Origin: Candidatus Minusculum obligatum
GTDB lineage: Bacteria > Patescibacteriota > Minisyncoccia > Phycocordibacterales > Phycocordibacteraceae
Assembly: GCA_045401155.1 (NCBI GenBank)
Contig: CP174360.1
Coordinates: 310,769 to 374,768, forward strand
Direction: 5' to 3'
DNA length: 64,000 nt
Made by a program: the position numbers and the translations under genes. The first letter of the stretch is position 1. Each line of letters begins with the position of its first letter. Below the pieces are notes generated by a model. The model had not been told where the DNA came from and made no database searches. It saw nothing but the letters and a program-made list of their open reading frames with translations. Below, in pieces: positions 1,610 to 50,137 of this stretch.

Positions 1610-2883
1610 TGGCAACAAAGAAAACAACAACTAAAAAAGTGACTAAGAAAGGCGTGACCAAAACGTCTAAGACGACTGCTGCGCGTAAGACAGCAACTAA
1701 AAAGACCGCACCAAAGAAAACTGCGGCAAAAAAGACGGTAACAAAAACTACCGCAAAGAAAGCGCCTGCCAAGAAAGCTGCACCAAAGAAAAAGGCAGTA
1801 ACAGGGAAAGTGAAGAAGATGCAGGAGCAGGCAGAGGCGCTTGTTGATAAGGGGCGTTCACGAGGATACGTTACCTACAGCGAAATTTTAAAAGAGTTCC
1901 CAGATATTGAAAAAAACATTCCATTTCTTGAGGAAATGTATGAGCGATTCAATACTGTTGGTGTTGATGTGCTTGAGGGAGGAGGAATGCTTGAAAATGA
2001 TGCGGATGAGTATCTGCAGAATCGAAATGTATATCGAAAGGGAGAAGGTGGAGGATATGACTCTATCCAGATCTACCTTCGAGAAATTGGACAGTACCCA
2101 CTCCTAAATGCGGCGCAGGAGCGTGATCTTGCGAAGCGTATTGTAGAGGGAGATGAGGAAGCTAAGCATATCCTTGCACGAAGTAACCTTCGTCTTGTAG
2201 TTTCTATTGCAAAGAAGTATGCAAATAGAAGTCCAGATCTTACACTTCTTGATCTTATTCAGGAGGGAAATATCGGACTGTATAAGGCAGTAGAGAAGTT
2301 TGACTATACAAAGGGGTATAAGTTCTCTACATATGCGACATGGTGGATTCGTCAGGCGATTACACGAGCGCTTGCTGATCAGTCACGAACTATTCGTATT
2401 CCTGTGCATATGGTTGAGACTATCGCTAAGTACAAGCAGGTCTCACGACGGCTCTCGCAGGCTCTAGGACGTGATCCTATGCCAGAGGAGATTGCAGTTG
2501 AGATGAATGTAGAGGTGGAGAAAATCTATCAGATTGAGAAGATCAACCAGGATACACTTTCTCTTGAGAACCCAGTTGGTTCAGATGATGATGAGAAGTC
2601 TACACTTGGAGACTTTATCGCAGATGATCGTATGCCAACTCCAGATCAGGATACTTCAGAGCGCATTCTTTCAGAGCAGCTTGAAGATATTCTTGATGAC
2701 CTATCAGATAAGGAGCGTAAGATTCTTGAGATGCGTCATGGACTTCTAGATGGTGTGTACCACACACTTGAAGAGGTTGGAAAAGAGTTTGGTGTTACGC
2801 GAGAGCGTATTCGTCAGATTGAAGCAAAGGCTCTTGAGAAGATTCGATCTCATGAGAAGGCTCGACGATTGAAGAGCTACTAA
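1609..2883 (+). CDS. rpoD: RNA polymerase sigma-70 factor RpoD with N-terminal K/A/T-rich histone-H1-like tail
   Basis: Conserved regions 2-4: [34 protein letters not shown]. Start chosen at MATKK (1609) rather than ORF-track 1558, because 1558 would overlap dnaG. Confidence 0.9.
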
Positions 2884-2884
2884 C

Positions 2885-2918
2885 AAAAAGCCCCGCATGA
2901 GCGGGGCTTTTTGTTTTG
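2885..2918. terminator. Bidirectional rho-independent terminator
   Basis: aaaaagccccgc-atga-gcggggcttttt hairpin between convergent rpoD and a transporter gene. Confidence 0.8.
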
Positions 2919-2920
2919 TC

Positions 2921-4291
2921 TTAGTGACTTTCTACCATTTCTTGTTGAGGTGTGTGTGGTGATGCTTCTACGTACTCTGGTGTGAAGAGCGCGTATTGTC
3001 CAACCCATACTGCGATAGCAAGGAAGTATCCCACAAGTACAGGAGTGAATGCATACCGTGCATATTTACCAAAGGTAAGCTCTGGTACCATTCCTGCAGC
3101 AATAACTCCAGCCACAGATCCCACAAGAAGAAGAGATCCTCCTGTTCCTACCGTCACGGCAGTAAGCGCCCACAATGCAGGATTTTCAATGTGGATCAGG
3201 TCAATCGCAAGAGCGGTAAGTGGCACGTTATCAACGATAGCTGAGAGTAGTCCCATTACTGAGCTTCCAATTCCAAGGCGCATGATGCTTGGTGCTTCTC
3301 CAAACACAAGAAGAGATAGTGCATCAAGCAGCCCAAGTGCTCCAAGAGCTGAAACTGAGAGCAAGATTCCGATAAAGAACTTAATTGAAGCGATATCTGT
3401 TTTTTGCACAAGGCGCTCTAGGTTTGTTTGCTTTGTCTCAAAGTCTTGTTTTGAGTGGTGCTTAAAGTATTCAATAAACAGCCATGTGACTCCAAGACCA
3501 AAGAGAAGCCCTAGGTACGGAGGAAGGTGCGCTAGGTGGAAGATAACCGGTAGTGTAAAGCTTCCAAAAGCAAGAGTAATAACCGTCTTCTCTGGAGCAC
3601 ATAGGCGCACCTCTTCGCACTTTTCATTTCCACCACGATTTTTAGATAGGTGGTTACCAATCAAGAATGTTGCAACAAGTCCCATCGCAAGAGATGGAAG
3701 GAATCCCCAAGAGATAATCTGAATCGCTGAGAATTTATCAGCAAGCCACAGCATGATTGTTGTAACGTCTCCAATAGGACTCCATGCTCCACCAGCATTT
3801 GCCAGAATTACAATTCCGGTTACGGCAATAAGTAGACGCTCTTCAGCAAAGAATCGTCGTGCGATCTGCACCATAATGATCGTAACTGTCAGGTTATCGA
3901 GTACTGCAGAGAAAAAGAATGTAAGCGCTGCAATAAGGAAGAACTGTCCTCGGTCTCCGAGTCCCAGTTGTGTAATTTTTGCACGTACCACATCAAAGAA
4001 GCGGTAGTGGATCAAAACCTCAACCAGTGTCATTGCAGCAAGCAAGAAGGTGATAAGACCAAAGATCTCAGCACCGGCATGATTTAGAAGCTCTGTAATT
4101 GTATTCGAGTTAAGCCCAGAAAATGCAACGGTGGTCCAAAGGAGCGCCGCCATAAGGAGGGCAATACCAGACTTGTGAGTCTTTACGGTATGCTCAAGTG
4201 TAATAAATAGGTATCCAGCAATGAAAATCGCAACGGCAATAACTGAAAGGGATAACATAGTTGTTTTGTTAGAAAAATAAAGCACCGGCAA
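2921..4291 (-). CDS. Ion transporter of the ArsB/NhaD/CitMHS permease superfamily
   Basis: 456 aa, about 12 TM helices, duplicated-halves architecture typical of NhaD/ArsB permeases. Start may be the internal Met at 4258. Confidence 0.6.
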   Translation of the reverse strand: MPVLYFSNKTTMLSLSVIAVAIFIAGYLFITLEHTVKTHKSGIALLMAALLWTTVAFSGLNSNTITELLNHAGAEIFGLITFLLAAMTLVEVLIHYRFFDVVRAKITQLGLGDRGQFFLIAALTFFFSAVLDNLTVTIIMVQIARRFFAEERLLIAVTGIVILANAGGAWSPIGDVTTIMLWLADKFSAIQIISWGFLPSLAMGLVATFLIGNHLSKNRGGNEKCEEVRLCAPEKTVITLAFGSFTLPVIFHLAHLPPYLGLLFGLGVTWLFIEYFKHHSKQDFETKQTNLERLVQKTDIASIKFFIGILLSVSALGALGLLDALSLLVFGEAPSIMRLGIGSSVMGLLSAIVDNVPLTALAIDLIHIENPALWALTAVTVGTGGSLLLVGSVAGVIAAGMVPELTFGKYARYAFTPVLVGYFLAIAVWVGQYALFTPEYVEASPHTPQQEMVESH

Positions 4292-8748: not shown

Positions 8749-8824
8749 CAAATACACAATAATTGTGGTATTTTATTGCGGGTTTTGACCCTTCACATTA
8801 ACATTGAAATGGGAGATTTCAATC

Positions 8825-9394
8825 ATGAGCAATGCTCAACAGGCAACTGTTCTGGACCAGATGCAGGCTGAACTGGCGGGGATCGATCTCGGTAACTACG
8901 AGATCAATCCGATGGAAGACGAGGGGTTCGATTCGAACCGCATGATTCACGTCGGTCCGGCGCCCGATCAGGTCAAGCGCCTGATCGTGTTGCGGTATCT
9001 TCTCGAGAAGCAACTCGACCAGGAAAAACGCTTTGGCCACAATGCGGTCGAGGTGTTGCGCAATCTCGGTGGCGACGTTGTCGCGACCGTTCGTGCGGTC
9101 AGGGCTATGAAAGATTTCACGGAAATCGATGAAGCTCTCCAGAACATTGCCGACGCGAACGAGCGGATCAATACGCTCTCGCGTAAGCTCGAGCTTCTGA
9201 ACATCCTGACCCAGGAAGAACTTTCTTGCCATTTCGGCGACAAGATTTCCCGGGTCAAGTTTCAGGGCGGTGAAGCCGCCCTCATGGTGATCCTGTCCGA
9301 CTGGACGGTCGCGACGATGAAGGATGCTGAACGCATTTTCGGTCGTCCTGCCGACGGCTTCATGGAAATGCTTCACGAGGCCATGGGCGGCTAG
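8825..9394 (+). CDS. Hypothetical protein encoded in GC-rich island 1 (foreign codon usage)
   Basis: RBS GGGAG 7 nt upstream of ATG 8825. About 57% GC with high GC3, against about 42% in flanks. Own GC-rich terminator. No family recognised. Confidence 0.6.
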   Translation: MSNAQQATVLDQMQAELAGIDLGNYEINPMEDEGFDSNRMIHVGPAPDQVKRLIVLRYLLEKQLDQEKRFGHNAVEVLRNLGGDVVATVRAVRAMKDFTEIDEALQNIADANERINTLSRKLELLNILTQEELSCHFGDKISRVKFQGGEAALMVILSDWTVATMKDAERIFGRPADGFMEMLHEAMGG

Positions 9395-13638: not shown

Positions 13639-13944
13639 TCAGTTGCCCCAGGTCATTTGGCCGAAAAGATTGCCGGTAGCCGTCATGCGACAGATGATGC
13701 CGCCCGCACGAGCACGATTTTCGGAGTCGTACGCAGTGAAGCCGCTAACGACTTCGGTCGTGATGCCATCGACGTGACACGCTTCGATGTCACCTTCGCG
13801 TGCTTCGTGAAGGCGCGTTTCCGCAGCATCGATGTAGTCGGCCGCAACAAGGTGATCTGCAAAGCTTTGCTGGGTGTTTTGTTGCTCTTGGCTGCCACAC
13901 CCACACAGGGTCGTGACCACGAGAATTGTAAGGATCATTTTCAT
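13639..13944 (-). CDS. Small secreted/lipoprotein-like hypothetical protein in GC-rich island 2
   Basis: RBS GGAG upstream of MKMILTILVVTTLCGCGSQ (signal peptide with Cys). About 58% GC against about 42% host. Start at 13944, not ORF-track 14106. Confidence 0.55.
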   Translation of the reverse strand: MKMILTILVVTTLCGCGSQEQQNTQQSFADHLVAADYIDAAETRLHEAREGDIEACHVDGITTEVVSGFTAYDSENRARAGGIICRMTATGNLFGQMTWGN

Positions 13945-17369: not shown

Positions 17370-18155
17370 TCACGTCAATCTAATTGGGATAAAGAAGGGG
17401 ATAGAAAGAATGGTTGTATATCTTCCAATTTTGTTTCGATGAATAGAGAGTGCGCATGCATTTGTGCCAAGGTGCCTTCCAATACGCTCTGCAAGAGACC
17501 GCATATATGCTCCTGATCCGCACGTCACTTTTATTGTAATAATTTGATAGTGCTGACGATTGTTCCAGAGTGTATTCATCCAAGTTTTTTTTATTTCTTC
17601 TTGCCGGAAATCTTTTCCAATAGTTTTTCGAGGGTCATCTGATATAGGAGCGTGTTTTAATAGGTGCTGTACTTTTTTATATAGTGTATTCGGGTCAATA
17701 AGTTTTGTTCTAAGCAGTTCAATACGATAAAAGGTTTCTTCGTGCGTTGGAATTTCTATATCTTTTAAGGTTCCTTCAAGTGCATGTAAAAATAAAGGCT
17801 TTCCATTAACTGGCTTTGAAGAGAAGTGTGGGTAAGGTAGCGTTTTTGTCCCAACTTCTTTTTTTAAGATGTCTTTTAAGATATTGTTGGATGCTCGCGT
17901 ATGTCTATTTGCATGTATTGGCATTCCTAATATATCTCCCGTATCAGTGCTGATATCTAAAAGCACTTCAACGACATACTCCTTATCAAGGTTTTGATAG
18001 TGTTCTTTTTTATATACATCTTTCCCTGAAAGAATTAAAAGCTCTCCCGTTGCCATTGGATCAAGGCGGCCTACATATGTTGCCTTATCTTTCGTTGTTC
18101 GTTGAAGTGCCTCAAGAGGTGTTTCTCCAAGTTTCTTATTAATTATTTTTTTCAT
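17370..18155 (-). CDS. truB: tRNA pseudouridine(55) synthase TruB
   Basis: GRLDPMATGELLIL catalytic motif. Start at MKKIINKK (18155). Confidence 0.8.
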   Translation of the reverse strand: MKKIINKKLGETPLEALQRTTKDKATYVGRLDPMATGELLILSGKDVYKKEHYQNLDKEYVVEVLLDISTDTGDILGMPIHANRHTRASNNILKDILKKEVGTKTLPYPHFSSKPVNGKPLFLHALEGTLKDIEIPTHEETFYRIELLRTKLIDPNTLYKKVQHLLKHAPISDDPRKTIGKDFRQEEIKKTWMNTLWNNRQHYQIITIKVTCGSGAYMRSLAERIGRHLGTNACALSIHRNKIGRYTTILSIPFFIPIRLT

Positions 18156-18673
18156 TAAAACTTTCTTGAATCGTATGCCCAGTGTAGGAGAGACTGTCGC
18201 TGCTTCTTCCTGCATGTTAGGTCTTTAGCTCTACAGTTTTGCATGACTTGAGAAGCATGTCTTCTGTAGGCAAACCATCGTTTAATTTGACGTTCATCAT
18301 CTTCATGTCTTCGCCCCATGTAATATCTGCAATACCACTGAAACCAGCCTCGAGGATCATCTTCATGCATCCATCCTTTTTCTCTCCAGACCTTTAAGGG
18401 TTGAGAAGCATTGATGCCAAAGAAGTTTAGATTCTTGTCTCGCTTTTTATTTATTGCAAGTTTTGCTTTTGTAAACCATTCTTTGGGAAACTCTTTTGCG
18501 CCGTCAGTCATGTATAGTCCTCCAAAGACACCAAGTTCAAGCATTTCTTTTGGTGTGAGTTGCGGTTTAAAGTCTTTGTGAAAATTTTTACCGACAGGCT
18601 CTGTTAGGTAGTACGTGTAATTTTGGAATACGTCTCGCACAACAACTTTTTTCTTCATACGTATAGTATACAA
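18155..18673 (-). CDS. Conserved hypothetical protein
   Basis: 172 aa, basic C-terminus, no recognised family. Confidence 0.45.
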   Translation of the reverse strand: MYTIRMKKKVVVRDVFQNYTYYLTEPVGKNFHKDFKPQLTPKEMLELGVFGGLYMTDGAKEFPKEWFTKAKLAINKKRDKNLNFFGINASQPLKVWREKGWMHEDDPRGWFQWYCRYYMGRRHEDDERQIKRWFAYRRHASQVMQNCRAKDLTCRKKQRQSLLHWAYDSRKF

Positions 18674-26300: not shown

Positions 26301-26825
26301 TTAGTTGGGTAGTTTTTCAATAATCTCCGCGACCACATCATCTGATGGTTTGTTTGTGTGTATGGTGATGTTACCGTATTTCTTATACTGCTCAAAACGT
26401 TCTAAGAATTTTTTCTTTTCCCTTTTCTTGTCTAGACCATTCCATCGTTTTAATTGTCTTTCTGCAATCATTTCTACGTCTTGTTCCGGATTAGGAGAAG
26501 GAAGGAAAAGTATAGAATAACCAGTAGCTAGAATCTCTTCATTTTGCTTTATAACTTCTGGTAAATGTGTATGAACAAGAAAGCCAGATGATGTGGCGAG
26601 TACGGCTGGTTCTGAGATAGTTTCGGAAAGAAGTTTGGTAAGTTCTGAATTTTTCTCACAGTACTTATCGTATCCTTTGGTATCTATATAAGTTCCTATG
26701 TTTTCAATTTGAGTACAAAATTCTGAATCTACATCTATAAACGTGTATCCAAGTTTTTGTGCAAGTAGATTCCCGATTGTTGTCTTACCAACGCTGGCTG
26801 GTCCGATAAGAAGAATTAGTTTCAT
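26301..26825 (-). CDS. Shikimate-kinase-like P-loop NTP kinase, paralog 1 (cassette gene)
   Basis: MKLILLIGPASVGKTTIGNLLAQKLGYTFIDVDSEF. About 40% identical to 27801..28313. Start at MKLILL (26825) preferred over ORF-track 26885, which would read through the terminator hairpin. Confidence 0.65.
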   Translation of the reverse strand: MKLILLIGPASVGKTTIGNLLAQKLGYTFIDVDSEFCTQIENIGTYIDTKGYDKYCEKNSELTKLLSETISEPAVLATSSGFLVHTHLPEVIKQNEEILATGYSILFLPSPNPEQDVEMIAERQLKRWNGLDKKREKKKFLERFEQYKKYGNITIHTNKPSDDVVAEIIEKLPN

Positions 26826-26902
26826 TTTCTCTAGGATACCAAGGTTCGGAAATCCTCTACAGGGTATTAAAAAATAGCCCGTCAAATAAGGCTATTTTTG
26901 CT

Positions 26903-27162
26903 GGCTCCGTATATATGATGAAATCCGAATGTATTTCAGACGGAGTCTGAAATGAACGGCGAGAGCGCGTGGTACCTCGCACGTAAACCTCCGCAAGGTG
27001 ATTTCCTACTAGCTCCCGCACCCGCACGCCTCGCTGTACTCGCCGTGCACAAATAGAATCCTTCTTTGCACTTTTATCCTTTCCCGCGCCCCCATTTTTT
27101 GGGAAATAGGGAAAAGAAGTTTCTATTTGCCTTCTGCTTCGCGCAGAAGGGGTGCTTGTGCC
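26903..27162 (+). repeat. Core GGCTCCG + Y repeat, copy A (internally diverged)
   Basis: Shares 5' (TATATATGATGAAATCCGAATGTATTTCAGACGGAGTCTGAAATGAACGG) and 3' (TTTCCCGCGCCCCCATTTTTTGGGAAA...CCTTCTGC..GCAGAAGG) segments with copies at 28360, 30015 and 41075(rc). Confidence 0.85.
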
Positions 27163-27217
27163 TCGTATATAAAAGTGTTGCCCCACCTGGGAGGGTGGGG
27201 CAAGACGCTTCTCGTTA

Positions 27218-27427
27218 TCACGCACTTTCAGTCTCCCGAACGTGTTCGTTCATGGGACAGTTCTCCCGATGAACCAAGTTGTTGTTTCGGTTCAGCGGGG
27301 GAACGTCGTGCGGATAGCCAAGATGTGTGGGTCCTGTGTCGATGCCGGTAGCGCTGCAGCACAAGCAGCGGTAGCTTGACGGCTCATCGACGATTGCAGA
27401 CCGTACAGGGACAGGGACGGTTTTCAT
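27218..27427 (-). CDS. Hypothetical 69-aa protein, GC-rich island 3, gene B
   Basis: RBS GGAGAG, then spacing, then ATG. GC-rich. Followed by hairpin ttgccccacc-tggga-ggtggggcaa at 27178-27203. Confidence 0.45.
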   Translation of the reverse strand: MKTVPVPVRSAIVDEPSSYRCLCCSATGIDTGPTHLGYPHDVPPLNRNNNLVHRENCPMNEHVRETESA

Positions 27428-27448
27428 ATTTTCTCTCCGATCCAGAGG

Positions 27449-27745
27449 TTATCGCTTGTCAGTTCTGATGCCGTGGCTTGCTCGACAGGTGAGAAAGCAT
27501 AGGTTTCGAACTGCATCTTCCGGTAGTCTGCTCCAGCCCGTGAAGACGATATCTTCTTCGTGAGCCTGAAACATTGCGAGAAATCCCTCGCCATCATCAC
27601 CGCGCCGTCTCCGCGCACGGTGTTTCCTGACGATAATTTCTCCGTATCTTCCATTGACCATCTTTCGAAGCCAACGTTGTCTGCGCCTATGGCTTTGGGG
27701 TTTCATCCCTGCGCCATGAGCGAGAGCAAGGAATACATCCGGCAT
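27449..27745 (-). CDS. Hypothetical basic 98-aa protein, GC-rich island 3, gene A
   Basis: Strong RBS GGAGGG 5 nt before ATG. Arg-rich segment HRRRQRWLRK...RKHRARRRRG. About 55% GC. Confidence 0.5.
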   Translation of the reverse strand: MPDVFLALAHGAGMKPQSHRRRQRWLRKMVNGRYGEIIVRKHRARRRRGDDGEGFLAMFQAHEEDIVFTGWSRLPEDAVRNLCFLTCRASHGIRTDKR

Positions 27746-27800
27746 ATTGCCCTCCAGTTGGTGGTAAAAACTCTGTTTAGAAAGTAGTACAAATATTACC

Positions 27801-28313
27801 TCATGTCAATTTTTGGATGATTTCTTCAACTATGGTTTCTTTGTCTTTGCTTGGGTCAATTTGTATGTCTCCGTACTGTTTATATTTTGCATGTCTATCT
27901 AGAAACTTTTGTTTTTCTTTCTCAAAATCCAGATTCCACCGTTTTATCTGTCGAGCTGCTATTTGATCTGCAAATGATTCAGGAGGGAGTAGGAGTATAG
28001 ATACTCCATATTCTTTTAGAAGCTTTAAATGCTTTTGTACAAGATGTGGCGACTTCTCGTGTACAAGAAAACCTGAAGGAGTTGCAAAGATTATGTCTTT
28101 TGGATTTTCCTTTGTAAGTTTGAGAGCAAGTTCGGAGTTTGCTTCACAATAACTCTCATAACCATATTCTTTTAAATATTCTGATATTGGAGCAATTTGT
28201 GTACAGAATTCTTCGTCTATATCAATAAAGTTCTTATCAAGTCTCTTTGCGAGGCTGGTTCCAGCTGTTGTTTTTCCAACACTTGCAGGTCCGATCAGGA
28301 AGAGATTGTTCAT
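27801..28313 (-). CDS. Shikimate-kinase-like P-loop NTP kinase, paralog 2 (cassette gene)
   Basis: MNNLFLIGPASVGKTTAGTSLAKRLDKNFIDIDEEF. Same architecture as paralog 1. Confidence 0.65.
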   Translation of the reverse strand: MNNLFLIGPASVGKTTAGTSLAKRLDKNFIDIDEEFCTQIAPISEYLKEYGYESYCEANSELALKLTKENPKDIIFATPSGFLVHEKSPHLVQKHLKLLKEYGVSILLLPPESFADQIAARQIKRWNLDFEKEKQKFLDRHAKYKQYGDIQIDPSKDKETIVEEIIQKLT

Positions 28314-28359
28314 TAAAAAAAGTATAGCAAAACCTCCCAAAAGGAGGCCTGTACTGCCT

Positions 28360-39254: not shown

Positions 39255-39980
39255 ATGGAAGAAAAAAAGAAAGAAGGGATGAATTTGGCAGTTCCGGGTG
39301 CGATTATGTTTGCTGGAATACTTATCGCTGGTGCACTAGTGTTCTCTTCACTGCAAAGCAGTGGGGGACAGCAAGTAGCTGAAGAGGCTCCACAAGACGC
39401 AGGGTCTCTTGACGCAATGGATCCAGTGTCAGAAAAAGATCACGTTCGAGGGAATCCAAATGCTCCAGTTATGATTGTTGAGTATTCAGACTATGAATGT
39501 CCTTTCTGTAAGCGCTTCCATGAGACCCTGAACCAGGTTATGGATACATATGGTGCTGAAGGAAAAGTTGCGTGGGTATATCGGCACTTTCCTCTTGACC
39601 AACTCCATCCAGTAAAAGCTCGGCAAGAAGCCGCAGCAGCAGAATGTGTTGCTGAAATTGGTGGAGATGACATGTTTTGGAGGTTCTCAGATAGATTCTT
39701 TGAACTTACGCCATCTAACAATCAAACCGACCTCACTGTGGTTCTTCCACAAATTTATTCTGAGTTAGGTCTTTCGCAGGCAAAGGTGGATGAGTGTGTT
39801 GCAAGTGGAAGGTATGATGATCATATTCAAGCTGAGTTTGAAAATGCTGTGGCAACTGGAGGTCGTGGTACGCCGTGGAGTATTCTGATAGCTGCAGACG
39901 GTACAAAGTACCCACTCTCTGGCGCACAACCTCTTAGTGCTATAAATCAGCTTATTGAACTTGGATTAGGAAACAACTAG
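39255..39980 (+). CDS. DsbA-like thiol:disulfide oxidoreductase, paralog 3
   Basis: TM anchor, CPFC, same architecture as the other two paralogs. Confidence 0.8.
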   Translation: MEEKKKEGMNLAVPGAIMFAGILIAGALVFSSLQSSGGQQVAEEAPQDAGSLDAMDPVSEKDHVRGNPNAPVMIVEYSDYECPFCKRFHETLNQVMDTYGAEGKVAWVYRHFPLDQLHPVKARQEAAAAECVAEIGGDDMFWRFSDRFFELTPSNNQTDLTVVLPQIYSELGLSQAKVDECVASGRYDDHIQAEFENAVATGGRGTPWSILIAADGTKYPLSGAQPLSAINQLIELGLGNN

Positions 39981-41410: not shown

Positions 41411-42904
41411 ATGAGATTCTTTTTATACATACGCAAATCAACCGATGAGGATGATAGGCAGATATTGTCGCTTGAAGCGCAAGAATTTGAATTGAAGCAG
41501 TTGGCTTCGCAAGAGCAAATAGAGATAGTAGAGGTGTTTCGAGAGTCACAGACTGCAAAAGAACCAGGGCGGAAAGTTTTTAATGAAATGCTCTTGCGAA
41601 TAGAGAATGGGGAAGTTGATGGAATTCTATCGTGGCATCCGGATAGATTGGCACGCAATAGTGTAGATGGCGGACGTATTATTTATTTAGTGGATGCGGG
41701 GAAGATACAATTCCTCAAATTCCCAACATTCTGGTTTGAGCCAACGCCTCAAGGCAAATTCATGCTGAACATTGCTTTTGGTCAGTCGAAATATTTTGTT
41801 GATAATCTTTCAGAGAATACTCGTCGTGGACTTCGTCAAAAATTGCGCCGTGGCGAATGGCCGGGACCAGCACCCATTGGCTATCTAAACGATAAGTTAG
41901 GTCACACTATTGTGCTGGATCCCGAGCGTGCGCCACTTCTGCAGAAGTTGTTTGAGAAATATGCAGAGGGGAATTATTCTCTGAAAGATTTACAAAATAT
42001 TGCAAAGTCTATTGGCTTGTTTAGTAGGGGAGGAAAGGTGTTATCTGTTTCGCTTATTCAAAACATCCTCTCCAATCCTTTTTATTATGGAGTTATGAGA
42101 TATGGAGGAGAATTGTATGAAGCAAAACACGAGCCTTTGATTTCTAAGAAACTGTTTGATTCCATTCAGAAGATAATGGCTAGCAAGTCGAGACCTCGCA
42201 AACATGGAGAGGTAGAGTATCCACTGCGTGGATTATTTGAGTGTGGCGAGTGCTCGTGCGCCATTACTTCTGAAATGCAAAAAGGACATCATTATTATCG
42301 CTGCACGAAAAAGCGTGGCGCTTGCTCGCAAAAATATCTTCGAGAAGAGCTTTTGGTTGAGCAGGTTGATGATGTCCTTTCAAACGTTTCTATACCTGAT
42401 TCGTGGGCAGAGGAGATGCTCGTGAGATTGGATGAGGAGAAGGAGTCTGAGGAGAGAGAAACTTCTCTGTATGCTCAAAAATTAAGAGACGATATTGCAT
42501 CTTTTGATCTCAAGCTTGATGCACTTCTAGATACTTATTTAGAGAAAAGTATTTCAAAAGAGGAGTATCAGAGCAAAAAGCAAAAACTGTTAGATCAAAA
42601 GATAGATTTGCAGGAGAAATTAGACTCAATTTCGCATACAGGAAGTTTCTGGCTCGAACCGATGCGAAACTTAATTTTAGATAGTAAACAAGCCAAATAT
42701 ATTGCTTCACAAAAATCTCTCTTCGAGAAGAGAGATTTTTGCAAAAAGGTTGGCTCGAACCTTGTTTTAGTGGACAAACGAGTGTCCTTTTTCTTCAAAA
42801 CCCCCTGGGAAATCCTTGCGAATTTCCCCCTTCAGAATTTTGGAAATCTCCCAAAATCTGAACTCTGTACTATCCGGCTCCGCGGACAGGATTCGAACCT
42901 GTGA
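41411..42904 (+). CDS. Large serine recombinase (resolvase-domain integrase)
   Basis: N-terminal YIRKSTDEDDRQILSLEAQ with catalytic Ser. Recombinase domain, zinc ribbon CGECSCA...YYRC, coiled coil. ORF runs through repeat X and stops inside the tRNA 3' end. Confidence 0.85.
   Translation: MRFFLYIRKSTDEDDRQILSLEAQEFELKQLASQEQIEIVEVFRESQTAKEPGRKVFNEMLLRIENGEVDGILSWHPDRLARNSVDGGRIIYLVDAGKIQFLKFPTFWFEPTPQGKFMLNIAFGQSKYFVDNLSENTRRGLRQKLRRGEWPGPAPIGYLNDKLGHTIVLDPERAPLLQKLFEKYAEGNYSLKDLQNIAKSIGLFSRGGKVLSVSLIQNILSNPFYYGVMRYGGELYEAKHEPLISKKLFDSIQKIMASKSRPRKHGEVEYPLRGLFECGECSCAITSEMQKGHHYYRCTKKRGACSQKYLREELLVEQVDDVLSNVSIPDSWAEEMLVRLDEEKESEERETSLYAQKLRDDIASFDLKLDALLDTYLEKSISKEEYQSKKQKLLDQKIDLQEKLDSISHTGSFWLEPMRNLILDSKQAKYIASQKSLFEKRDFCKKVGSNLVLVDKRVSFFFKTPWEILANFPLQNFGNLPKSELCTIRLRGQDSNL
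42772..42890 (+). repeat. X repeat + core GGCTCCG, copy R, abutting the tRNA 3' end
   Basis: Identical to X in copy C. Inverted relative to X in copy D, so the recombinase gene is bracketed by roughly 100-bp inverted repeats. Confidence 0.85.
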
Positions 42905-43495
42905 CCTGCCGGTTACGCTTGATCCCACTATTTCTAGGGGTGCGGACTATATCATCACCCATCTTGCGATTAGGGTGGAAGGCGCTTCCCAAAGCTTTCG
43001 CTCCAGTACTCCCGTAAGGGATAGTCTCTGAACCTTCCTCGTGAGAGGCTTGGCTGCTGATTACCTGCAACATTACTTGCTAAGGCTTCCAGCAATTCAC
43101 CTTCTTTTCAACCTAAGTTTCCTTAGGAGGCTGCGTGGTGCCTGCGTGCAGTTCTGCGTGGCAATTTGCGCAAACAAGAATACATTTATCAAGTTCTTTT
43201 TGGATTTTCTCCCAAGAACGAGTTAGTCCTCTTGCTGATAATCCAAAATCTTTTTGCTTTGGATCTTTGTGATGAAAGGCAAGCGCTTGCTTACATTTTT
43301 TATATCCACAAATTTTGCATTTACCACCTCCGTATTCAAGAGCTTTGTTGCGAAGTTCCTTTCGTCGCTTTGCAACTGCCTTGCGGAGATATTCTGCACG
43401 GTCAGCGTATGTTCTTTTATCTGGCATACACATATGTAGTATACCAGAGGAACATGCGTTCACAGCCGGATGCTCTACCGCTGAGCTACCGCGGA
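42886..43495 (-). tRNA. tRNA (Asn-GUU if spliced by group I rules; His-GUG if co-linear) split by a ~538-nt anticodon-loop intron
   Basis: Exon 1 (43495..43462) is TCCGCGGTAGCTCAGCGGTAGAGCATCCGGCTGT. Exon 2 (42923..42886) is TAACCGGCAGGTCACAGGTTCGAATCCTGTCCGCGGAG. Acceptor stem is 7/7, D-arm and T-arm (GGTTCGAATCC) are canonical, discriminator is G. Confidence 0.75.
43113..43433 (-). CDS. Intron-encoded HNH homing endonuclease
   Basis: CKICGYKKCKQALAFHHKDPKQKD...CANCHAELH (HNH with two zinc knuckles). Lies wholly inside the tRNA intron. ORF-track N-terminal extension to 43571 rejected. Confidence 0.75.
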   Translation of the reverse strand: MCMPDKRTYADRAEYLRKAVAKRRKELRNKALEYGGGKCKICGYKKCKQALAFHHKDPKQKDFGLSARGLTRSWEKIQKELDKCILVCANCHAELHAGTTQPPKET

Positions 43496-43594
43496 ATATA
43501 AATACGCTCATGTGAAGCGTGAAGGCATTGTACCCAAAAAGGGTCATTTTGCAATGTGATATACTCACCAAATAGTAAGTAATGAATGTAATTT

Positions 43595-45762: not shown

Positions 45763-46045
45763 AACAAAAAAGCCACCTATGCATAGGTGGCAAAAGGGCC
45801 AGGTGAGGTGACCAGAGAACTCGCGCTACCAAGGCGAGGGTTCAAAGGAAGCACGTGCTTCTGGCCACCTCGGGGCGCACAGGAGAAGTATATCATAGAA
45901 GAAAGGGCGGAAAACGTTGTGGAGGGCACACAGCGTTTTCCGCCCAGAGGCGAGCGCATCAGGCTCAGTCACGAAACCTTTGCGCTCGCGCGGTGCCCGT
46001 CTGCGGGGGGAGATTGCAAACGGGCGGCCTGGATCCATACTACGC
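45763..46045 (-). ncRNA. GC-rich structured RNA candidate ending in an intrinsic terminator (identity unresolved)
   Basis: About 58% GC over about 285 nt with no credible ORF. Minus strand ends with GCCACCTATGCATAGGTGGC + T6 at 45763-45791. Long internal stems such as ggcggaaaacg/cgttttccgcc. Confidence 0.45.
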
Positions 46046-46374: not shown

Positions 46375-47670
46375 ATGAATTCGCGCGAAAAACTTATTGT
46401 AAAAGGATTAAACGGAAGAAAAACTCTAGAAGGTGAAGTAACAATTAATGGGGCAAAAAATGCTGCGCTACCTCTTATGGCAGCAGCAATGCTTGCAGAT
46501 GATCCATTTGAAATAAAGGATCTTCCAAATATTAGGGACGTGATTGCAATGAAAGAACTGCTCTCAGGACTTGGTGCGGAAGTATCTCAAAAGGGGAAAG
46601 TGACATCTATTACACCTGCTAAAAAATCAAAAGGAGAACTTGTGGAAGATGTGGCAAAGCGACTGCGTGCATCAATTATTCTCACAGGTCCAATTCTTTC
46701 TCGATATGGGAAGGTTGTATTCCCGCACCCAGGAGGATGCGTGCTTGGATCACGGCCTATTGACCTGTTTTTGGATGCGTATGAAAAGATGGGGGCAACC
46801 GTAGAACACTCAGGGGAGGCATACATTATTTCTGCTCCAAGAGGAGGACTTAAGGGTGCTGATATTTTCTTTAAGACCATGAGTGTTACGGCAACTGAAG
46901 CGCTCATGTTTGCTGCGGTATTTGCAAAAGGAAAGACGGTGCTACATAACGCTGCAATGGAGCCAGAGATTCCATTCCTTGCAGAGTGTTTAAATGCTGC
47001 AGGAGCTAAGATTGAAGGGGCTGGTACACCAACCATTACTATTACGCCTGTAAAGAAAATAAAGCAAAAGAAAGCTTGTCCTGTGCTCCCGGATCGTATT
47101 GAAGCAGGAAGTTTCCTTATTTTGGGTTCACTCTTGGCAAAGAACTTAACTATTAAAAATGTAGTGCCAGAGCATCTACAGATTGTCACTGAACTTTTGA
47201 AAGAGTCTGGTGTTCCAATTGAAGTTGGAAAAAATAGTATTTCAATTGTAAACAATACAAAACCTAACACTTCATTTAAGGCAATTAGCTTTAGGACACA
47301 TGAGTATCCTGGATTTCCCACAGATCTTCAGGCGCCAATGGTAGTCTTCCTCACACAGGTAAAAGGAGAAAGCACGGTTCTAGAGACAGTGTTTGATAAC
47401 CGGTTTAATTTTGTGCAAGACCTTATTCGTATGGGTGCTCGTGTATCTGTGTGGAATCCACATCAGGTTACGGTCTACGGACCATCTAAATTAAAGGCGC
47501 GAAATCTAACAGGTCCAGATATTCGAGCAGGTCTTGCGTACATTATTGCTGCGCTTCTGGCATCAGGGGTAGGTGAGATTGATAATGTCCATCTTATTGA
47601 TCGAGGATACGCAGATATTGAAGGGCGATTATCTGCACTAGGTGCAAATATTACACGAGTAAATTCATGA
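46375..47670 (+). CDS. murA: UDP-N-acetylglucosamine 1-carboxyvinyltransferase
   Basis: Full-length EPSP-synthase-fold match. N-terminus LIVKGLNGRKTLEGEVTINGAKNAALP. Confidence 0.9.
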   Translation: MNSREKLIVKGLNGRKTLEGEVTINGAKNAALPLMAAAMLADDPFEIKDLPNIRDVIAMKELLSGLGAEVSQKGKVTSITPAKKSKGELVEDVAKRLRASIILTGPILSRYGKVVFPHPGGCVLGSRPIDLFLDAYEKMGATVEHSGEAYIISAPRGGLKGADIFFKTMSVTATEALMFAAVFAKGKTVLHNAAMEPEIPFLAECLNAAGAKIEGAGTPTITITPVKKIKQKKACPVLPDRIEAGSFLILGSLLAKNLTIKNVVPEHLQIVTELLKESGVPIEVGKNSISIVNNTKPNTSFKAISFRTHEYPGFPTDLQAPMVVFLTQVKGESTVLETVFDNRFNFVQDLIRMGARVSVWNPHQVTVYGPSKLKARNLTGPDIRAGLAYIIAALLASGVGEIDNVHLIDRGYADIEGRLSALGANITRVNS

Positions 47671-48680
47671 GCTACTTCTCGCCAAAGTTAGGAATTGATC
47701 TTGGAACCACAAACATTCTTGTGTATGTACCAGGAAAGGGAGTGGTGTTAAATGAGCCATCTGTTGTTGCAGTATCAGAGCAGAGCAATAAGGTGCTTGC
47801 GATTGGTGCTGAGGCAAAGGAAATGATTGGACGTACGCCAGATGATATTGTTGCGTACCGACCAATGAAAGACGGTGTGATTGCTGATTATCGTGTGACT
47901 GAAGCCATGCTCCGATACTACATGCGTAAGGCGCTTGGCCAGTGGAATTTCTTTAAACCAAACGTGATGATCTCAGTTCCCGCAGGTGTCACGGGCACAG
48001 AGCGTCGCGCTGTTGTAGAAGCTGCGGTTCGTGCAGGAGCTAAGAACGCATACGTGGTGAAGGAGCCAATCTTGGCTGCTATTGGTGCAGGTATTCCTAT
48101 TCAAGAGCCATATGGTCACATGATCGTAGATGCTGGCGGAGGAACCATTGATGCCGCCGTAATTTCTCTTGGAGGAATTGTATGTGCTAATTCAGTAAAG
48201 TGTTCTGGAAATAAACTAGATCATGCAATCATCGATTTTTGTAAGAAAAAATATAACCTTGCTATTGGAGATAAGATGGCTGAGATGATAAAGATTAAAA
48301 TAGGCGCTGCGCTTCCTATGCAGGAGCCACTTGTAATGGAGGTTCGAGGTAGAGACCTGGTATCGGGTCTTCCGCGCACGGTGGAGCTCACAACTAATGA
48401 TGTAGTTGAGGCTCTAAGCAAAGAGCTTCGAGAAATGATTCGTGCAATTAGAACGGTGCTTGAGCAAACCCCTCCAGAGCTTGCGTCAGATATTATTGAT
48501 CGGGGAATTATTATGACAGGAGGGACATCACAGCTGCGTAATTTTCCAGAGCTTGTATATAGAAAGACAGGAGTTAAGGCGCGTCTTGCAAGTGATGCGT
48601 ACTACTGTGTGGTGAAGGGGACCGGTATTGCACTTAAACATTTGGATACATATCAAAGAAGTATTATTTCGAAGCGGTAA
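47667..48680 (+). CDS. mreB: Actin-like rod-shape protein MreB, paralog 1
   Basis: LGIDLGTTNILVYV, DAGGGTID. Confidence 0.85.
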   Translation: MSYFSPKLGIDLGTTNILVYVPGKGVVLNEPSVVAVSEQSNKVLAIGAEAKEMIGRTPDDIVAYRPMKDGVIADYRVTEAMLRYYMRKALGQWNFFKPNVMISVPAGVTGTERRAVVEAAVRAGAKNAYVVKEPILAAIGAGIPIQEPYGHMIVDAGGGTIDAAVISLGGIVCANSVKCSGNKLDHAIIDFCKKKYNLAIGDKMAEMIKIKIGAALPMQEPLVMEVRGRDLVSGLPRTVELTTNDVVEALSKELREMIRAIRTVLEQTPPELASDIIDRGIIMTGGTSQLRNFPELVYRKTGVKARLASDAYYCVVKGTGIALKHLDTYQRSIISKR

Positions 48681-48685
48681 AAGGA

Positions 48686-48711
48686 AAAGGGCGGGTCCAA
48701 AGACTCGCCCT
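48686..48711. terminator. Bidirectional terminator
   Basis: aagggcgggtc-caaa-gactcgccctt. Confidence 0.7.
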
Positions 48712-48738
48712 TTCGTATTGCTTTGCTTACGACCTGTT

Positions 48739-49434
48739 TTACCAGGTGCGGCTCACGCTCGCTCCGTAGGTCACGTGATGTGCTTCCGGTCCGGAGGGAT
48801 TGAATCCACCGACAGAAAGCGTGAGTGACCAGTTCTCGAAAGACCGTGTCGTCGAAGCTTCCCATCGTGGAGACGTGTAGTCCGAATCGGTACTGTGCGT
48901 GACGCCCAGAAGCATATTGGTGCTCCAGCTCTCACTGACCGTATGATTCCAGCTCGCGGCGGTGCGCCACAAGTTGGTTTCAATCAGGCCGGTGAGTTGA
49001 TCAGCGCCGAGCATCAGGTTGATGCTGTTGTTGGCGTCGATCTCGATCGTGTCACTCACCGTGGCGCGGAATCGGATGATGTCCGTGCCGGTAAAGTCGA
49101 GGTCGCCGACATTGGGAGTCGGAATATCGAACAACGAGATCGAGGCACTGCAGGAAAGGTTCCCGCACGCGCCTGCCCAGCCGACAGTGTAGTCAACCTC
49201 ACGGCCCTGGACATTTCCATCGAGCGCTTCAGAGCGCCAGTAGTCAAGGAAGAATCCATTCCCGTAGGAGGTAGTGATGCCGCCTTGAAGAACGGGTTCG
49301 TCGTATTGGGTGAAGCCGAACTCCGAGAAGGAGTAATCCGACTTCACACCGACGTAGATCGTGAGTTCTTGAGCGCTCGCTGTCGAGCCAAGAAGCGCAA
49401 CAGCAGCAAGCATGGTAAGGATCGTTTTCATCAC
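48739..49434 (-). CDS. Proteobacterial-type outer-membrane beta-barrel protein (TIGR02001/MipA-like) in GC-rich island 4
   Basis: Signal peptide. LTIYVGVKSDYSFSEF...GFFLDYWRSE. Alternating amphipathic strands, C-terminal W. About 58% GC. Confidence 0.6.
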   Translation of the reverse strand: MMKTILTMLAAVALLGSTASAQELTIYVGVKSDYSFSEFGFTQYDEPVLQGGITTSYGNGFFLDYWRSEALDGNVQGREVDYTVGWAGACGNLSCSASISLFDIPTPNVGDLDFTGTDIIRFRATVSDTIEIDANNSINLMLGADQLTGLIETNLWRTAASWNHTVSESWSTNMLLGVTHSTDSDYTSPRWEASTTRSFENWSLTLSVGGFNPSGPEAHHVTYGASVSRTW

Positions 49435-49516
49435 ATCCCCCTTTCTATATGGTCTGATGAATTGTTAATATTATAACATAAAATACATAAAAATCAATAT
49501 ATAGTAGAATGGTCAT

Positions 49517-50137
49517 ATGCATCACGCACTACTATACATACAGCCTTTTAATACGTGTGAAGAGTGTATTTCTTCACTACAAAAAGAACTTTCTGTAGAT
49601 GCTGCAGATACACGTGTATTTAAGAATGAAAAGTTTTTAGTAGATGATGCACGAGATCTCGTGCGCGCTATTTCAATGACACCAATGGTCGGGGAGAAAA
49701 CTCTTACTGTTGTGGCTGCAGAAAAAATAGATAGAGAGGCACAAAACGCGCTTTTGAAAGTCGCGGAAGAGCCACCAGTATTTGCACACATTGCACTCAT
49801 GCTTCCGAGTGAAGATATGGTGCTTCCCACACTTCTTTCACGGTTTGTGCGTGTAGATAGTAATAATGTAAAGCAAGACCTTTCCTTAGCTAAAGAGTTT
49901 TTGGCAGGATCTACTGCTTCTCGACAGAAATTAACTACAAAGATAGTGAAAGATAAAGATCACGCTGCTGCTAAGAAGCTAATACATGAATGTGAAGTTA
50001 TTTTAGGGAAAAATGTAGAAGAATATAAAGAGCATCTTTCTGATCTTGTGGCATTTCATCAGTATATTGAGCAGCGAGGTGCGAGTATTAAATTTATGCT
50101 TGAGCACATGGCCCTATCTCTTCCACAAGTAAAGTAG
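49517..50137 (+). CDS. holB: DNA polymerase III delta-prime-like protein lacking the N-terminal P-loop module
   Basis: LLKVAEEPPVFAHIAL (delta-prime LLKTLEEPP motif), but no Walker A. Confidence 0.55.
   Translation: MHHALLYIQPFNTCEECISSLQKELSVDAADTRVFKNEKFLVDDARDLVRAISMTPMVGEKTLTVVAAEKIDREAQNALLKVAEEPPVFAHIALMLPSEDMVLPTLLSRFVRVDSNNVKQDLSLAKEFLAGSTASRQKLTTKIVKDKDHAAAKKLIHECEVILGKNVEEYKEHLSDLVAFHQYIEQRGASIKFMLEHMALSLPQVK

Follow-up and report, generated by a model that had tools for sequence, protein, structure and literature searches.

We investigated a GC-rich gene that encodes a predicted outer-membrane-type beta-barrel in a 64-kb stretch of contig CP174360.1 (assembly GCA_045401155.1; the whole stretch is called the window below, and positions are counted from its first letter). 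The gene lies between mreB and holB and encodes a protein of 230 amino acids (aa), here called the barrel protein, in a genome of Patescibacteria, or the candidate phyla radiation (CPR), a lineage that, as a preliminary description of the stretch had stated, is regarded as monoderm (PMC7906910; PMC12857230; 10.1101/2021.05.31.446380). The explanation that fits the evidence best, and that we consider probable, is that the barrel gene is native to this lineage and maintained by selection, that it occupies a replaceable cassette, and that its product is exported and resides as a barrel outside the cytoplasmic membrane.

A selected gene in the mreB-holB position of a Patescibacteria clade

A search of 5.8 billion clustered proteins recovered six homologs of the barrel protein at 55-73% identity, and a profile search added a seventh at 47%. 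Across four orthologous loci, codon positions 1 and 2 of the gene are identical at 69-77% of sites and position 3 at 41-51%, with nonsynonymous divergence (dN) of 0.24-0.39, synonymous divergence (dS) of at least 1.66 and dN/dS of about 0.2; the overall divergence is similar to that of the adjoining holB. The barrel gene is under purifying selection in the minus frame. An antisense open reading frame (ORF) of 193 aa at 48895-49476 was considered as the true gene and rejected because codon-position conservation and dN/dS place the coding on the minus frame; this ORF is a by-product of composition. A structured RNA in the GC-rich island was likewise rejected, given that Rfam returned no match at its gathering thresholds.

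An identical protein in NCBI (P0001; 100% identity, 230 aa), named 'TorF family putative porin', is attributed to 'Patescibacteria group bacterium UBA2103' and is encoded on a 578,798-bp contig. In a set of 185,579 species representatives, the closest MurA loci were those of Patescibacteria UBA3533 (85%), Patescibacteria UBA2103 (83%) and Candidatus Wolfebacteria NORP156 (80%), and the next best match after these three had only 37% identity. By these matches, the host is assigned as a Wolfebacteria-like Patescibacterium, which agrees with the CPR-type host that the preliminary description had considered.

In independent assemblies from other samples, the barrel gene occurs on the opposite strand with mreB-murA on one side and holB-frr-rseP on the other. 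At least six relatives that were assembled independently hold it between mreB and holB, and the contigs that bear it in this position are 553 kb, 14 kb, 12.7 kb and 5 kb in length. The loci with this gene, referred to as type A, are L001 (a 553-kb ENA contig), L002 (its Logan counterpart), L003-L005 (Logan contigs) and L006 (a 5-kb ENA scaffold). More divergent relatives occupy the same neighborhood, namely, P0157 in L017 (37% identity) and P0014 in L018 (24%), and the slot in L013, a 555-kb JGI contig, holds a divergent homolog detected with an hhalign probability of 97%. One more distant relative is annotated from a Candidatus Pacebacteria genome, which implies that the family extends further into Paceibacterota. 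All close relatives with readable context are located in CPR-type neighborhoods. Peptide patterns of the clade found no relative among the 185,579 GTDB species representatives or in viral contigs, and tblastn against phage and plasmid collections returned nothing. The barrel gene is native to a marine or aquatic clade of Wolfebacteria-like Patescibacteria.

The L018 locus (positions 1880-3726 of a contig from Logan SRR31012008), from a relative with 60% GC, combines the TorF-like P0014 with a holB-frr, mreB and murA neighborhood, from which it follows that the clade spans a wide range of genomic GC content. The slot in this locus also holds two extra small ORFs with signal peptides, of 142 and 132 aa.

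A fixed expression site with replaceable cassettes

In blastn comparisons, the alignment of the window is continuous across the barrel gene with the type-A loci L001, L003 and L006, whereas similarity to loci that have another cassette or none is lost from about 48692 to about 49464 and resumes in the promoter and holB region. The exchange is seen between two close relatives, L006 and L009 (Wolfebacteria NORP156), in which MurA and MreB are 98.4% identical at the protein level and the DNA is 93.8% identical over 4.1 kb. The two contigs cease to be similar 8 nt past the stop codon of mreB and are alike again over the initial five codons of the slot gene (MKKFF), its promoter and the beginning of holB; between these points, L006 encodes the TorF-like protein and L009 an unrelated signal-peptide protein of 289 aa (type C), beta-rich in sequence and ending in VQVRF. 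The record names suggest that both contigs come from one study.

A third occupant (type B), a 219-aa protein with only three cluster relatives in the database, was found in L007, L008, L014 and L015, which are UBA3533, UBA2103 and Tara Oceans contigs. In L016 (Ga0136601_1002614, 3778-3825), the slot is empty: mreB ends only 44 nt before holB begins, and neither the slot promoter nor the hairpin that follows the barrel gene is present. Elsewhere, the promoter (-35 TTGAYT, extended -10 TGnTATAAT) is conserved across loci with cassettes of types A, B and C and the divergent L013 type, so that the expression site belongs to the flank and not to the cassette. The slot proteins have diverged to 24-73% identity, compared with 88-98% for MreB; among the four type-A loci compared (the window, L001, L003 and L006), slot-protein identities by and large follow the identities of the flanking genes.

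This locus combines conserved flanks and a conserved promoter with unrelated occupants, with an empty allele and with a swap between genomes that are nearly identical. Judged by this comparison of loci, the mreB-holB slot is a fixed expression site in which a fast-evolving coding cassette is replaced or lost among close relatives. The cassette borders contain only chance-level 10-nt repeats and none that are att-like, and no recombinase adjoins the slot. Site-specific recombination was ruled out by the absence of flanking repeats, and we infer that exchange occurs by homologous recombination in the flanks.

This arrangement resembles that of strain-variable surface-protein genes in flexible genomic islands (porins, S-layer, O-antigen), where conserved flanks likewise enclose unrelated alternatives; the empty allele and the swap between contigs with 94% DNA identity add to the likeness. 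It differs from such islands in that only one gene, of 0.7-0.9 kb, is exchanged and one of the junctions falls within the signal-peptide codons, in the lack of an integrase or att-like repeats, and in its occurrence in a CPR genome of 0.55-0.58 Mb.

A GC-rich segment of about 260 nt at 45775-46036, between def and a conserved 95-aa ORF and 3 kb from the barrel slot, has no Rfam match. DNA similarity to all relatives breaks exactly at this segment and resumes on both sides, and it looks like a second small variable segment.

Family membership and predicted fold

The TorF/Gcw_chp family was first described in Proteobacteria and consists of putative porins. The barrel protein matches PF09694 (Gcw_chp) at 25.3 bits, above the gathering cutoff of 24 (E 1.8e-5), with the alignment limited to the N-terminal half (residues 18-113, profile positions 4-104 of 230). 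The corresponding NCBIfam model, TIGR02001, aligns near full length (residues 6-210, profile positions 15-216 of 244) and scores 21.8 bits, below its cutoff of 47.15 (E 1.1e-4). For the MipA family, no Pfam or NCBIfam match was obtained at E <= 10. Thus, of the 'TIGR02001/MipA-like' label in the preliminary description, the first part is retained as a near-full-length alignment below the cutoff, and the second has to be dropped.

Searching 1.84 billion representatives with a profile of the clade yielded 336 proteins at E <= 1e-3, mostly of 220-260 aa. Among 40 remote hits from this search, 19 match PF09694 (best E 1.3e-32), and the sole other family recognized is an autotransporter beta-domain, in one hit. 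All relatives that were read have a signal peptide, and almost all end in W or F, down to 24% identity. One relative, P0007, matches PF13557, a family of channels for hydrophobic compounds, at 21.9 bits, just below the 22-bit cutoff. The barrel protein itself shares the layout of TorF/Gcw_chp proteins (about 230-250 aa, typically about 240, with a signal peptide and a C-terminal aromatic residue), being 230 aa long with a signal peptide and a terminal W, and it shares the N-terminal motifs Y..vkSdY.F, QGG.T, W.S and E.DyT.GW. It differs in coming from a Patescibacterium and not from a proteobacterium, in occupying a replaceable slot, and in containing a conserved pair of cysteines. By profile comparison, the barrel protein is classified as a divergent branch of the TorF/Gcw_chp superfamily, which passes the Pfam threshold and misses the stricter NCBIfam one.

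An AlphaFold2 model built from a six-sequence alignment has a mean predicted local distance difference test score (pLDDT) of 83.2 and a predicted template modeling score (pTM) of 0.73, with all five models at pLDDT 80-83. It consists of 12 long antiparallel strands preceded by a low-confidence N-terminal helix (residues 2-14) that corresponds to the signal peptide and lies outside the barrel. In a Foldseek comparison with the PDB, the top 50 listed matches were all outer-membrane barrels, and the neighbors listed were FapF, KdgM, NanC, VhGalP, OmpG, PcoB, autotransporter domains and general porins; these matches have E-values of about 1e-6 and TM-scores of 0.55-0.60 when normalized by the query and 0.76-0.77 when normalized by KdgM, at a sequence identity of about 9-10% and a root-mean-square deviation of 3.6-9 A. 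One face of the predicted strands is apolar, and the opposite face is small and polar or charged. The apolar/polar difference between the two faces of residue dyads is 2.1, compared with 1.3 +/- 0.28 in shuffled sequences, and the alternating beta-strand pattern noted earlier is accordingly real.

In predicted size and topology, the barrel is similar to KdgM, NanC and VhGalP (PDB 4fqe, 4pr7, 2wjq, 8xua), FapF, PcoB and OmpG. It differs from the KdgM/NanC-like 12-stranded channels in having no sequence-level homology to them: neither the KdgM/NanC family PF06178 nor any other Pfam family of solved porins gave a match at E <= 10. A search of PDB sequences with the family profile returned noise only, with no chain at a meaningful E-value, and no family member has a solved structure. 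On the strength of the model, we are confident in predicting that the protein is a closed, approximately 12-stranded outer-membrane-type beta-barrel; like outer-membrane proteins in general, it ends in an aromatic residue. The initial identification of a GC-rich gene for an outer-membrane-type barrel was therefore borne out by the ORF, the signal peptide, the C-terminal Trp, the fold and PF09694.

The two cysteines, C90 and C95, are both invariant in the clade alignment. A disulfide between them is plausible given that three DsbA-like and two DsbD-type proteins are encoded in the window. The genes for these three thioredoxin-fold and two membrane proteins lie within 1-43000 (e.g., 39255-39980), a density, for 43 kb of a genome of about 0.58 Mb, that is unusually high for extracytoplasmic disulfide formation. 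Conserved Cys pairs are present in the cassettes of both type A and type B.

Possible locations of the barrel in or outside the cell

We propose that Sec would export the barrel protein, that the exported protein would be oxidized to form the C90-C95 disulfide, and that the barrel would then insert in a hydrophobic layer outside the cytoplasmic membrane, where it might act as a small channel or surface receptor. Surface exposure would, in turn, let phages or host specificity drive diversification, and the fast divergence, swapping and loss of the slot gene may well reflect exposure to selection of this kind. The terminal aromatic residue, kept over deep divergence within CPR, argues that some constraint of barrel assembly is still acting. 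As for the layer that receives the barrel, we tentatively give similar weight, well short of an even chance, to an outer layer of the symbiont itself and to the outer membrane of a Gram-negative host where the two cells meet, with the remaining probability left to other destinations.

Several observations weigh against this proposal. BamA and Lpt, whose presence in the host the preliminary description had named as a refutation, and likewise Lol, are absent from what was covered of the 64-kb window (about 11% of the 579-kb contig) and of the 4-21 kb loci of relatives, a negative result that rests on the Pfam families listed for 48 window ORFs (25 of the 50 families listed for the first set) and on locus annotations, and the barrel accordingly has no known assembly route. 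CPR cells imaged by cryogenic transmission electron microscopy (cryo-TEM) lack an outer membrane (PMC7906910). The empty slot in L016 indicates that the barrel gene is dispensable, and the TIGR02001 score of the barrel protein falls short of the cutoff. The case for strong expression consists of the promoter, the ribosome-binding site and codon usage, in a window that contains no ribosomal-protein genes for comparison.

The other cassettes do not readily extend the proposal either. The only family match of the type-C protein is a weak one, to PF13505 at E 0.009; hhalign of this protein against the TorF-like profile gave nothing, and a PDB sequence search gave noise only. For the type-B protein, AlphaFold2 with three sequences gave no usable fold (pLDDT 28.7), and hhalign against the TorF-like profile reached a probability of 60% over the C-terminal third only. 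Comparison of the type-B and type-C proteins with the 174 proteins of the fetched loci using phmmer showed no new links.

Near the slot in L001 (about 7 kb away, at 17729-18295), there is a gene for a 188-aa protein with SurA_N-type domains (PF13624 and PF13623). Domains of this type occur both in SurA, which in diderms serves as a chaperone for outer-membrane proteins, and in the monoderm protein PrsA.

One possibility, which we consider rather unlikely, is that the clade is not plainly monoderm and has its own outer lipid or protein layer, akin to an outer membrane or to the toga of Thermotoga, with the slot encoding the major, antigenically variable barrel of this layer. The hallmarks of outer-membrane proteins, including the terminal aromatic residue, that persist over long divergence within CPR would fit such a layer, as would the strong expression signals, the unusual codon bias, and the strain-level swapping and loss, which resemble the behavior of major surface proteins. 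Furthermore, ultrasmall groundwater cells have an uncharacterized outer layer with a periodicity of 3.2-3.8 nm (PMC7906910). However, in addition to the cryo-TEM images and the lack of BamA, Lpt and Lol in the sequence covered, a Parcubacterium genome lacks genes for lipid A and fatty-acid synthesis (PMC5220378), and the empty slot implies that such a layer could not depend on the barrel gene. The barrel arrays of the Thermotoga toga (PMC10160955) offer a parallel as barrels outside the standard proteobacterial porin setting, but Thermotogae encode BamA, and we found no homology between these barrels and the barrel protein.

We assign a comparably low probability to a variant in which the outer membrane of a Gram-negative host is the final location of the exported barrel. 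CPR cells attach to hosts of this kind and rely on them for lipids and building blocks (PMC7906910), and the barrel could form a channel for metabolites or lipids at the attachment site, with the cassettes tracking host range. The porin-like predicted barrel with its polar lumen face, the accessory character and strain-level variation of the gene, and the near-match of P0007 to PF13557 (21.9 against 22 bits) are all compatible with this scenario. Nevertheless, we know of no precedent for a monomeric barrel that enters a lipopolysaccharide-covered membrane from outside, and the locus has no delivery system associated with it. Phage outer-membrane proteins such as Lom (10.1101/2025.02.28.640651) bear some likeness to the barrel protein in that phage barrels are among its structural neighbors; they differ in being assembled by the host from inside the cell, and neither homology to them nor, with the peptide patterns of the clade, a relative in viral contigs was found.

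The possibility that the protein is soluble, that is, a secreted or wall-associated beta-rich protein for which the barrel model is an artifact of a shallow alignment, appears improbable. The alignment used by AlphaFold consisted of six sequences only, the TIGR02001 match is below the cutoff and the family has no solved structure; but the confidence of all five models, the top structural neighbors, which are without exception membrane barrels, the dyad pattern exceeding that of shuffles and the Pfam family link, which is independent of the model, all speak against it.

Codon usage and the origin of the GC-rich island

The island extends over about 750 nt at 55-59% GC, and the barrel ORF has 56.6% GC, with 200-nt windows of up to 58.5%, compared with 41.9% for the 64-kb window. 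At third codon positions, GC content (GC3) is 0.69 against a mean of 0.345 (standard deviation (sd) 0.083) in 72 non-overlapping window ORFs, among which the barrel ORF is the strongest outlier, at about 4 sd. The slot genes at the orthologous loci have GC3 values of 0.69, 0.67, 0.62 and 0.46, compared with 0.26-0.37 in the flanks, and GC3 is 0.69 in L017, 0.53 in L013 and 0.71-0.76 in the unrelated type-B cassette. The orthologous loci have reached saturation at synonymous sites, with dS > 1 in every gene, and because the GC3 excess persists in spite of this saturation, the GC richness is not a relic of recent transfer.

The shift in codon usage is specific to C. Among two-fold codons ending in a pyrimidine (Y), the share of C is 0.70 versus 0.29, and at four-fold sites, C rises to 0.40 versus 0.10 and A falls to 0.10 versus 0.39, whereas the share of G among two-fold codons ending in a purine (R) is unchanged (0.45 versus 0.45). 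At five other loci, the R-ending G share is 0.36-0.65 compared with 0.43-0.54 in their flanks, with no consistent rise. A GC-rich donor or GC-biased gene conversion was rejected as the cause of the island, since either would raise G at R-ending codons too. The pattern is similar to that expected where very highly expressed genes are selected for C-ending codons, and the bias observed here is most simply read as the result of such selection.

Two further genes in the window have the same C-ending codon signature. One, at 8804-9394 (+), encodes a 196-aa protein without a family match, and the other, at 13639-13944 (-), a 101-aa protein with a lipoprotein-type signal (...LCGCGS); both could share an expression or exchange class with the barrel gene.

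It is very unlikely that the gene was recently acquired from a GC-rich diderm donor and is a passenger without a role in the CPR cell. The contrast in GC3 between the gene and its flanks could be taken to suggest such an origin, and the slot does exchange genes. However, recent acquisition is hard to reconcile with a dN/dS of about 0.2 and a GC3 excess kept through synonymous saturation, and a GC-rich donor would not leave a C-specific shift with an unchanged R-ending G share. Moreover, the peptide patterns found no relative in the species representatives, none was found in phages or plasmids, and the nearest relatives, down to 24% identity, share the same CPR slot. Horizontal acquisition, which had been raised at the outset, is thus retained as horizontal or recombinational replacement among close relatives and discarded as recent transfer from Proteobacteria. 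Contamination of the CPR contig with proteobacterial DNA, or chimeric assembly, which the sharply deviating composition of the island and the first description of the family in Proteobacteria might have suggested, is excluded for practical purposes by the same gene, slot and flanks in independent assemblies from other samples, by single contigs that cover both junctions, and by the promoter shared with relatives that carry other cassettes.

Implications

The prevailing view of CPR bacteria is that of monoderms whose outer membrane was lost, and both the construction of their envelope and the way in which they tap their hosts are current questions. The searchable literature yielded no earlier account of porins, beta-barrels or BamA for Patescibacteria, Parcubacteria or Wolfebacteria. 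The barrel gene is conserved, selected and apparently strongly expressed, occupies one slot over deep divergence and is swapped between near-identical strains, which makes it a concrete and easily cloned candidate for a component of the envelope or the host interface. It offers a direct test of barrel assembly without the beta-barrel assembly machinery (BAM), and the slot locus provides a natural marker for surface variation between strains of an uncultured marine clade. A further lesson is that GC-rich islands within AT-rich genomes are not necessarily foreign DNA.

A broader conjecture, which we put forward as possible and no better than that, is that some Paceibacteria-type CPR make and depend on outer-membrane-type barrels without a known BAM, either in a self-made outer layer or in the host's outer membrane, and that the mreB-holB slot is the swap site of the major exposed barrel. 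If true, it would represent the first description of outer-membrane-protein biology for a phylum that is treated as monoderm.

Gene boundaries and expression signals

The features of the locus are collected in Table 1. The preliminary description had located the gene at 48680-49440 with a product of 231 aa; the gene is present there, and its ends were corrected. Translation from the ATG at 49431 gives 230 aa and from the alternative GTG at 49434 gives 231 aa, with the stop codon at 48739-48741. The ATG is favored because the Shine-Dalgarno sequence fits it and because 230 aa is the length of P0001. Residues A21 and Q22 of the signal peptide region are invariant in six orthologs. The hairpin between the convergent mreB and barrel genes probably acts as a bidirectional terminator. 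With a near-consensus promoter of its own, a strong ribosome-binding site and the hairpin terminator shared with mreB, the barrel gene is monocistronic.

Table 1. Positions of the barrel gene, its parts and the adjoining features in the window (CDS, coding sequence).
Feature	Position	Strand	Basis or remark
mreB, left flank	47667..48680	(+)	88-98% amino-acid identity among relatives
12-bp GC-rich hairpin with a T-run on both strands	48686..48713	both	terminator scan, inverted repeat
Replaceable cassette	48692..49464		blastn break points against L007, L008, L009, L013, L016 and L017
TorF/Gcw_chp-like beta-barrel CDS	48739..49431	(-)	ORF list, NCBI P0001, purifying selection, PF09694
Mature domain, 210 aa, predicted ~12 long antiparallel strands, end ...SRTW	48742..49371	(-)	AlphaFold2, Foldseek
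Conserved Cys pair C90 and C95, motif CGxxSC, in the hairpin between strands 79-90 and 93-103	49150..49167	(-)	alignment, model
Sec-type signal peptide MKTILTMLAAVALLGSTASA, cleavage predicted between ASA and QE	49372..49431	(-)	read from sequence
Shine-Dalgarno sequence AGGGGGA	49436-49442	(-)	4 nt upstream of ATG 49431; from sequence
Sigma-70-type promoter TTGATT, 16-nt spacer, TATAAT with TG extension	49470..49497	(-)	consensus scan, 10/12 matches
holB (DNA polymerase III delta'), right flank	49517..50137	(+)	divergent from barrel gene

Other features of the window

A group I intron (RF00028, 71.6 bits) was identified at 42924-43197, within 42880-43571 on the minus strand. An HNH-like ORF (43113-43571) runs into the 5' end of the intron, and a gene for a large serine recombinase (41411-42904, plus strand) abuts it. 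The sequence just 3' of the intron, in the RNA sense, resembles the T-arm and acceptor of a tRNA (GGTTCGAATCC...); ARAGORN detected no tRNA or tmRNA in the 64 kb and none after trial exon joins at the intron. A further GC-rich segment of about 800 nt (26951-27750, up to 55% GC) contains no long ORF, has no Rfam match at E <= 0.1 and is flanked by shikimate-kinase-like paralogs at 26301-26885 and 27801-28340; it may represent a structured RNA that has yet to be described, or else an insert that has decayed.

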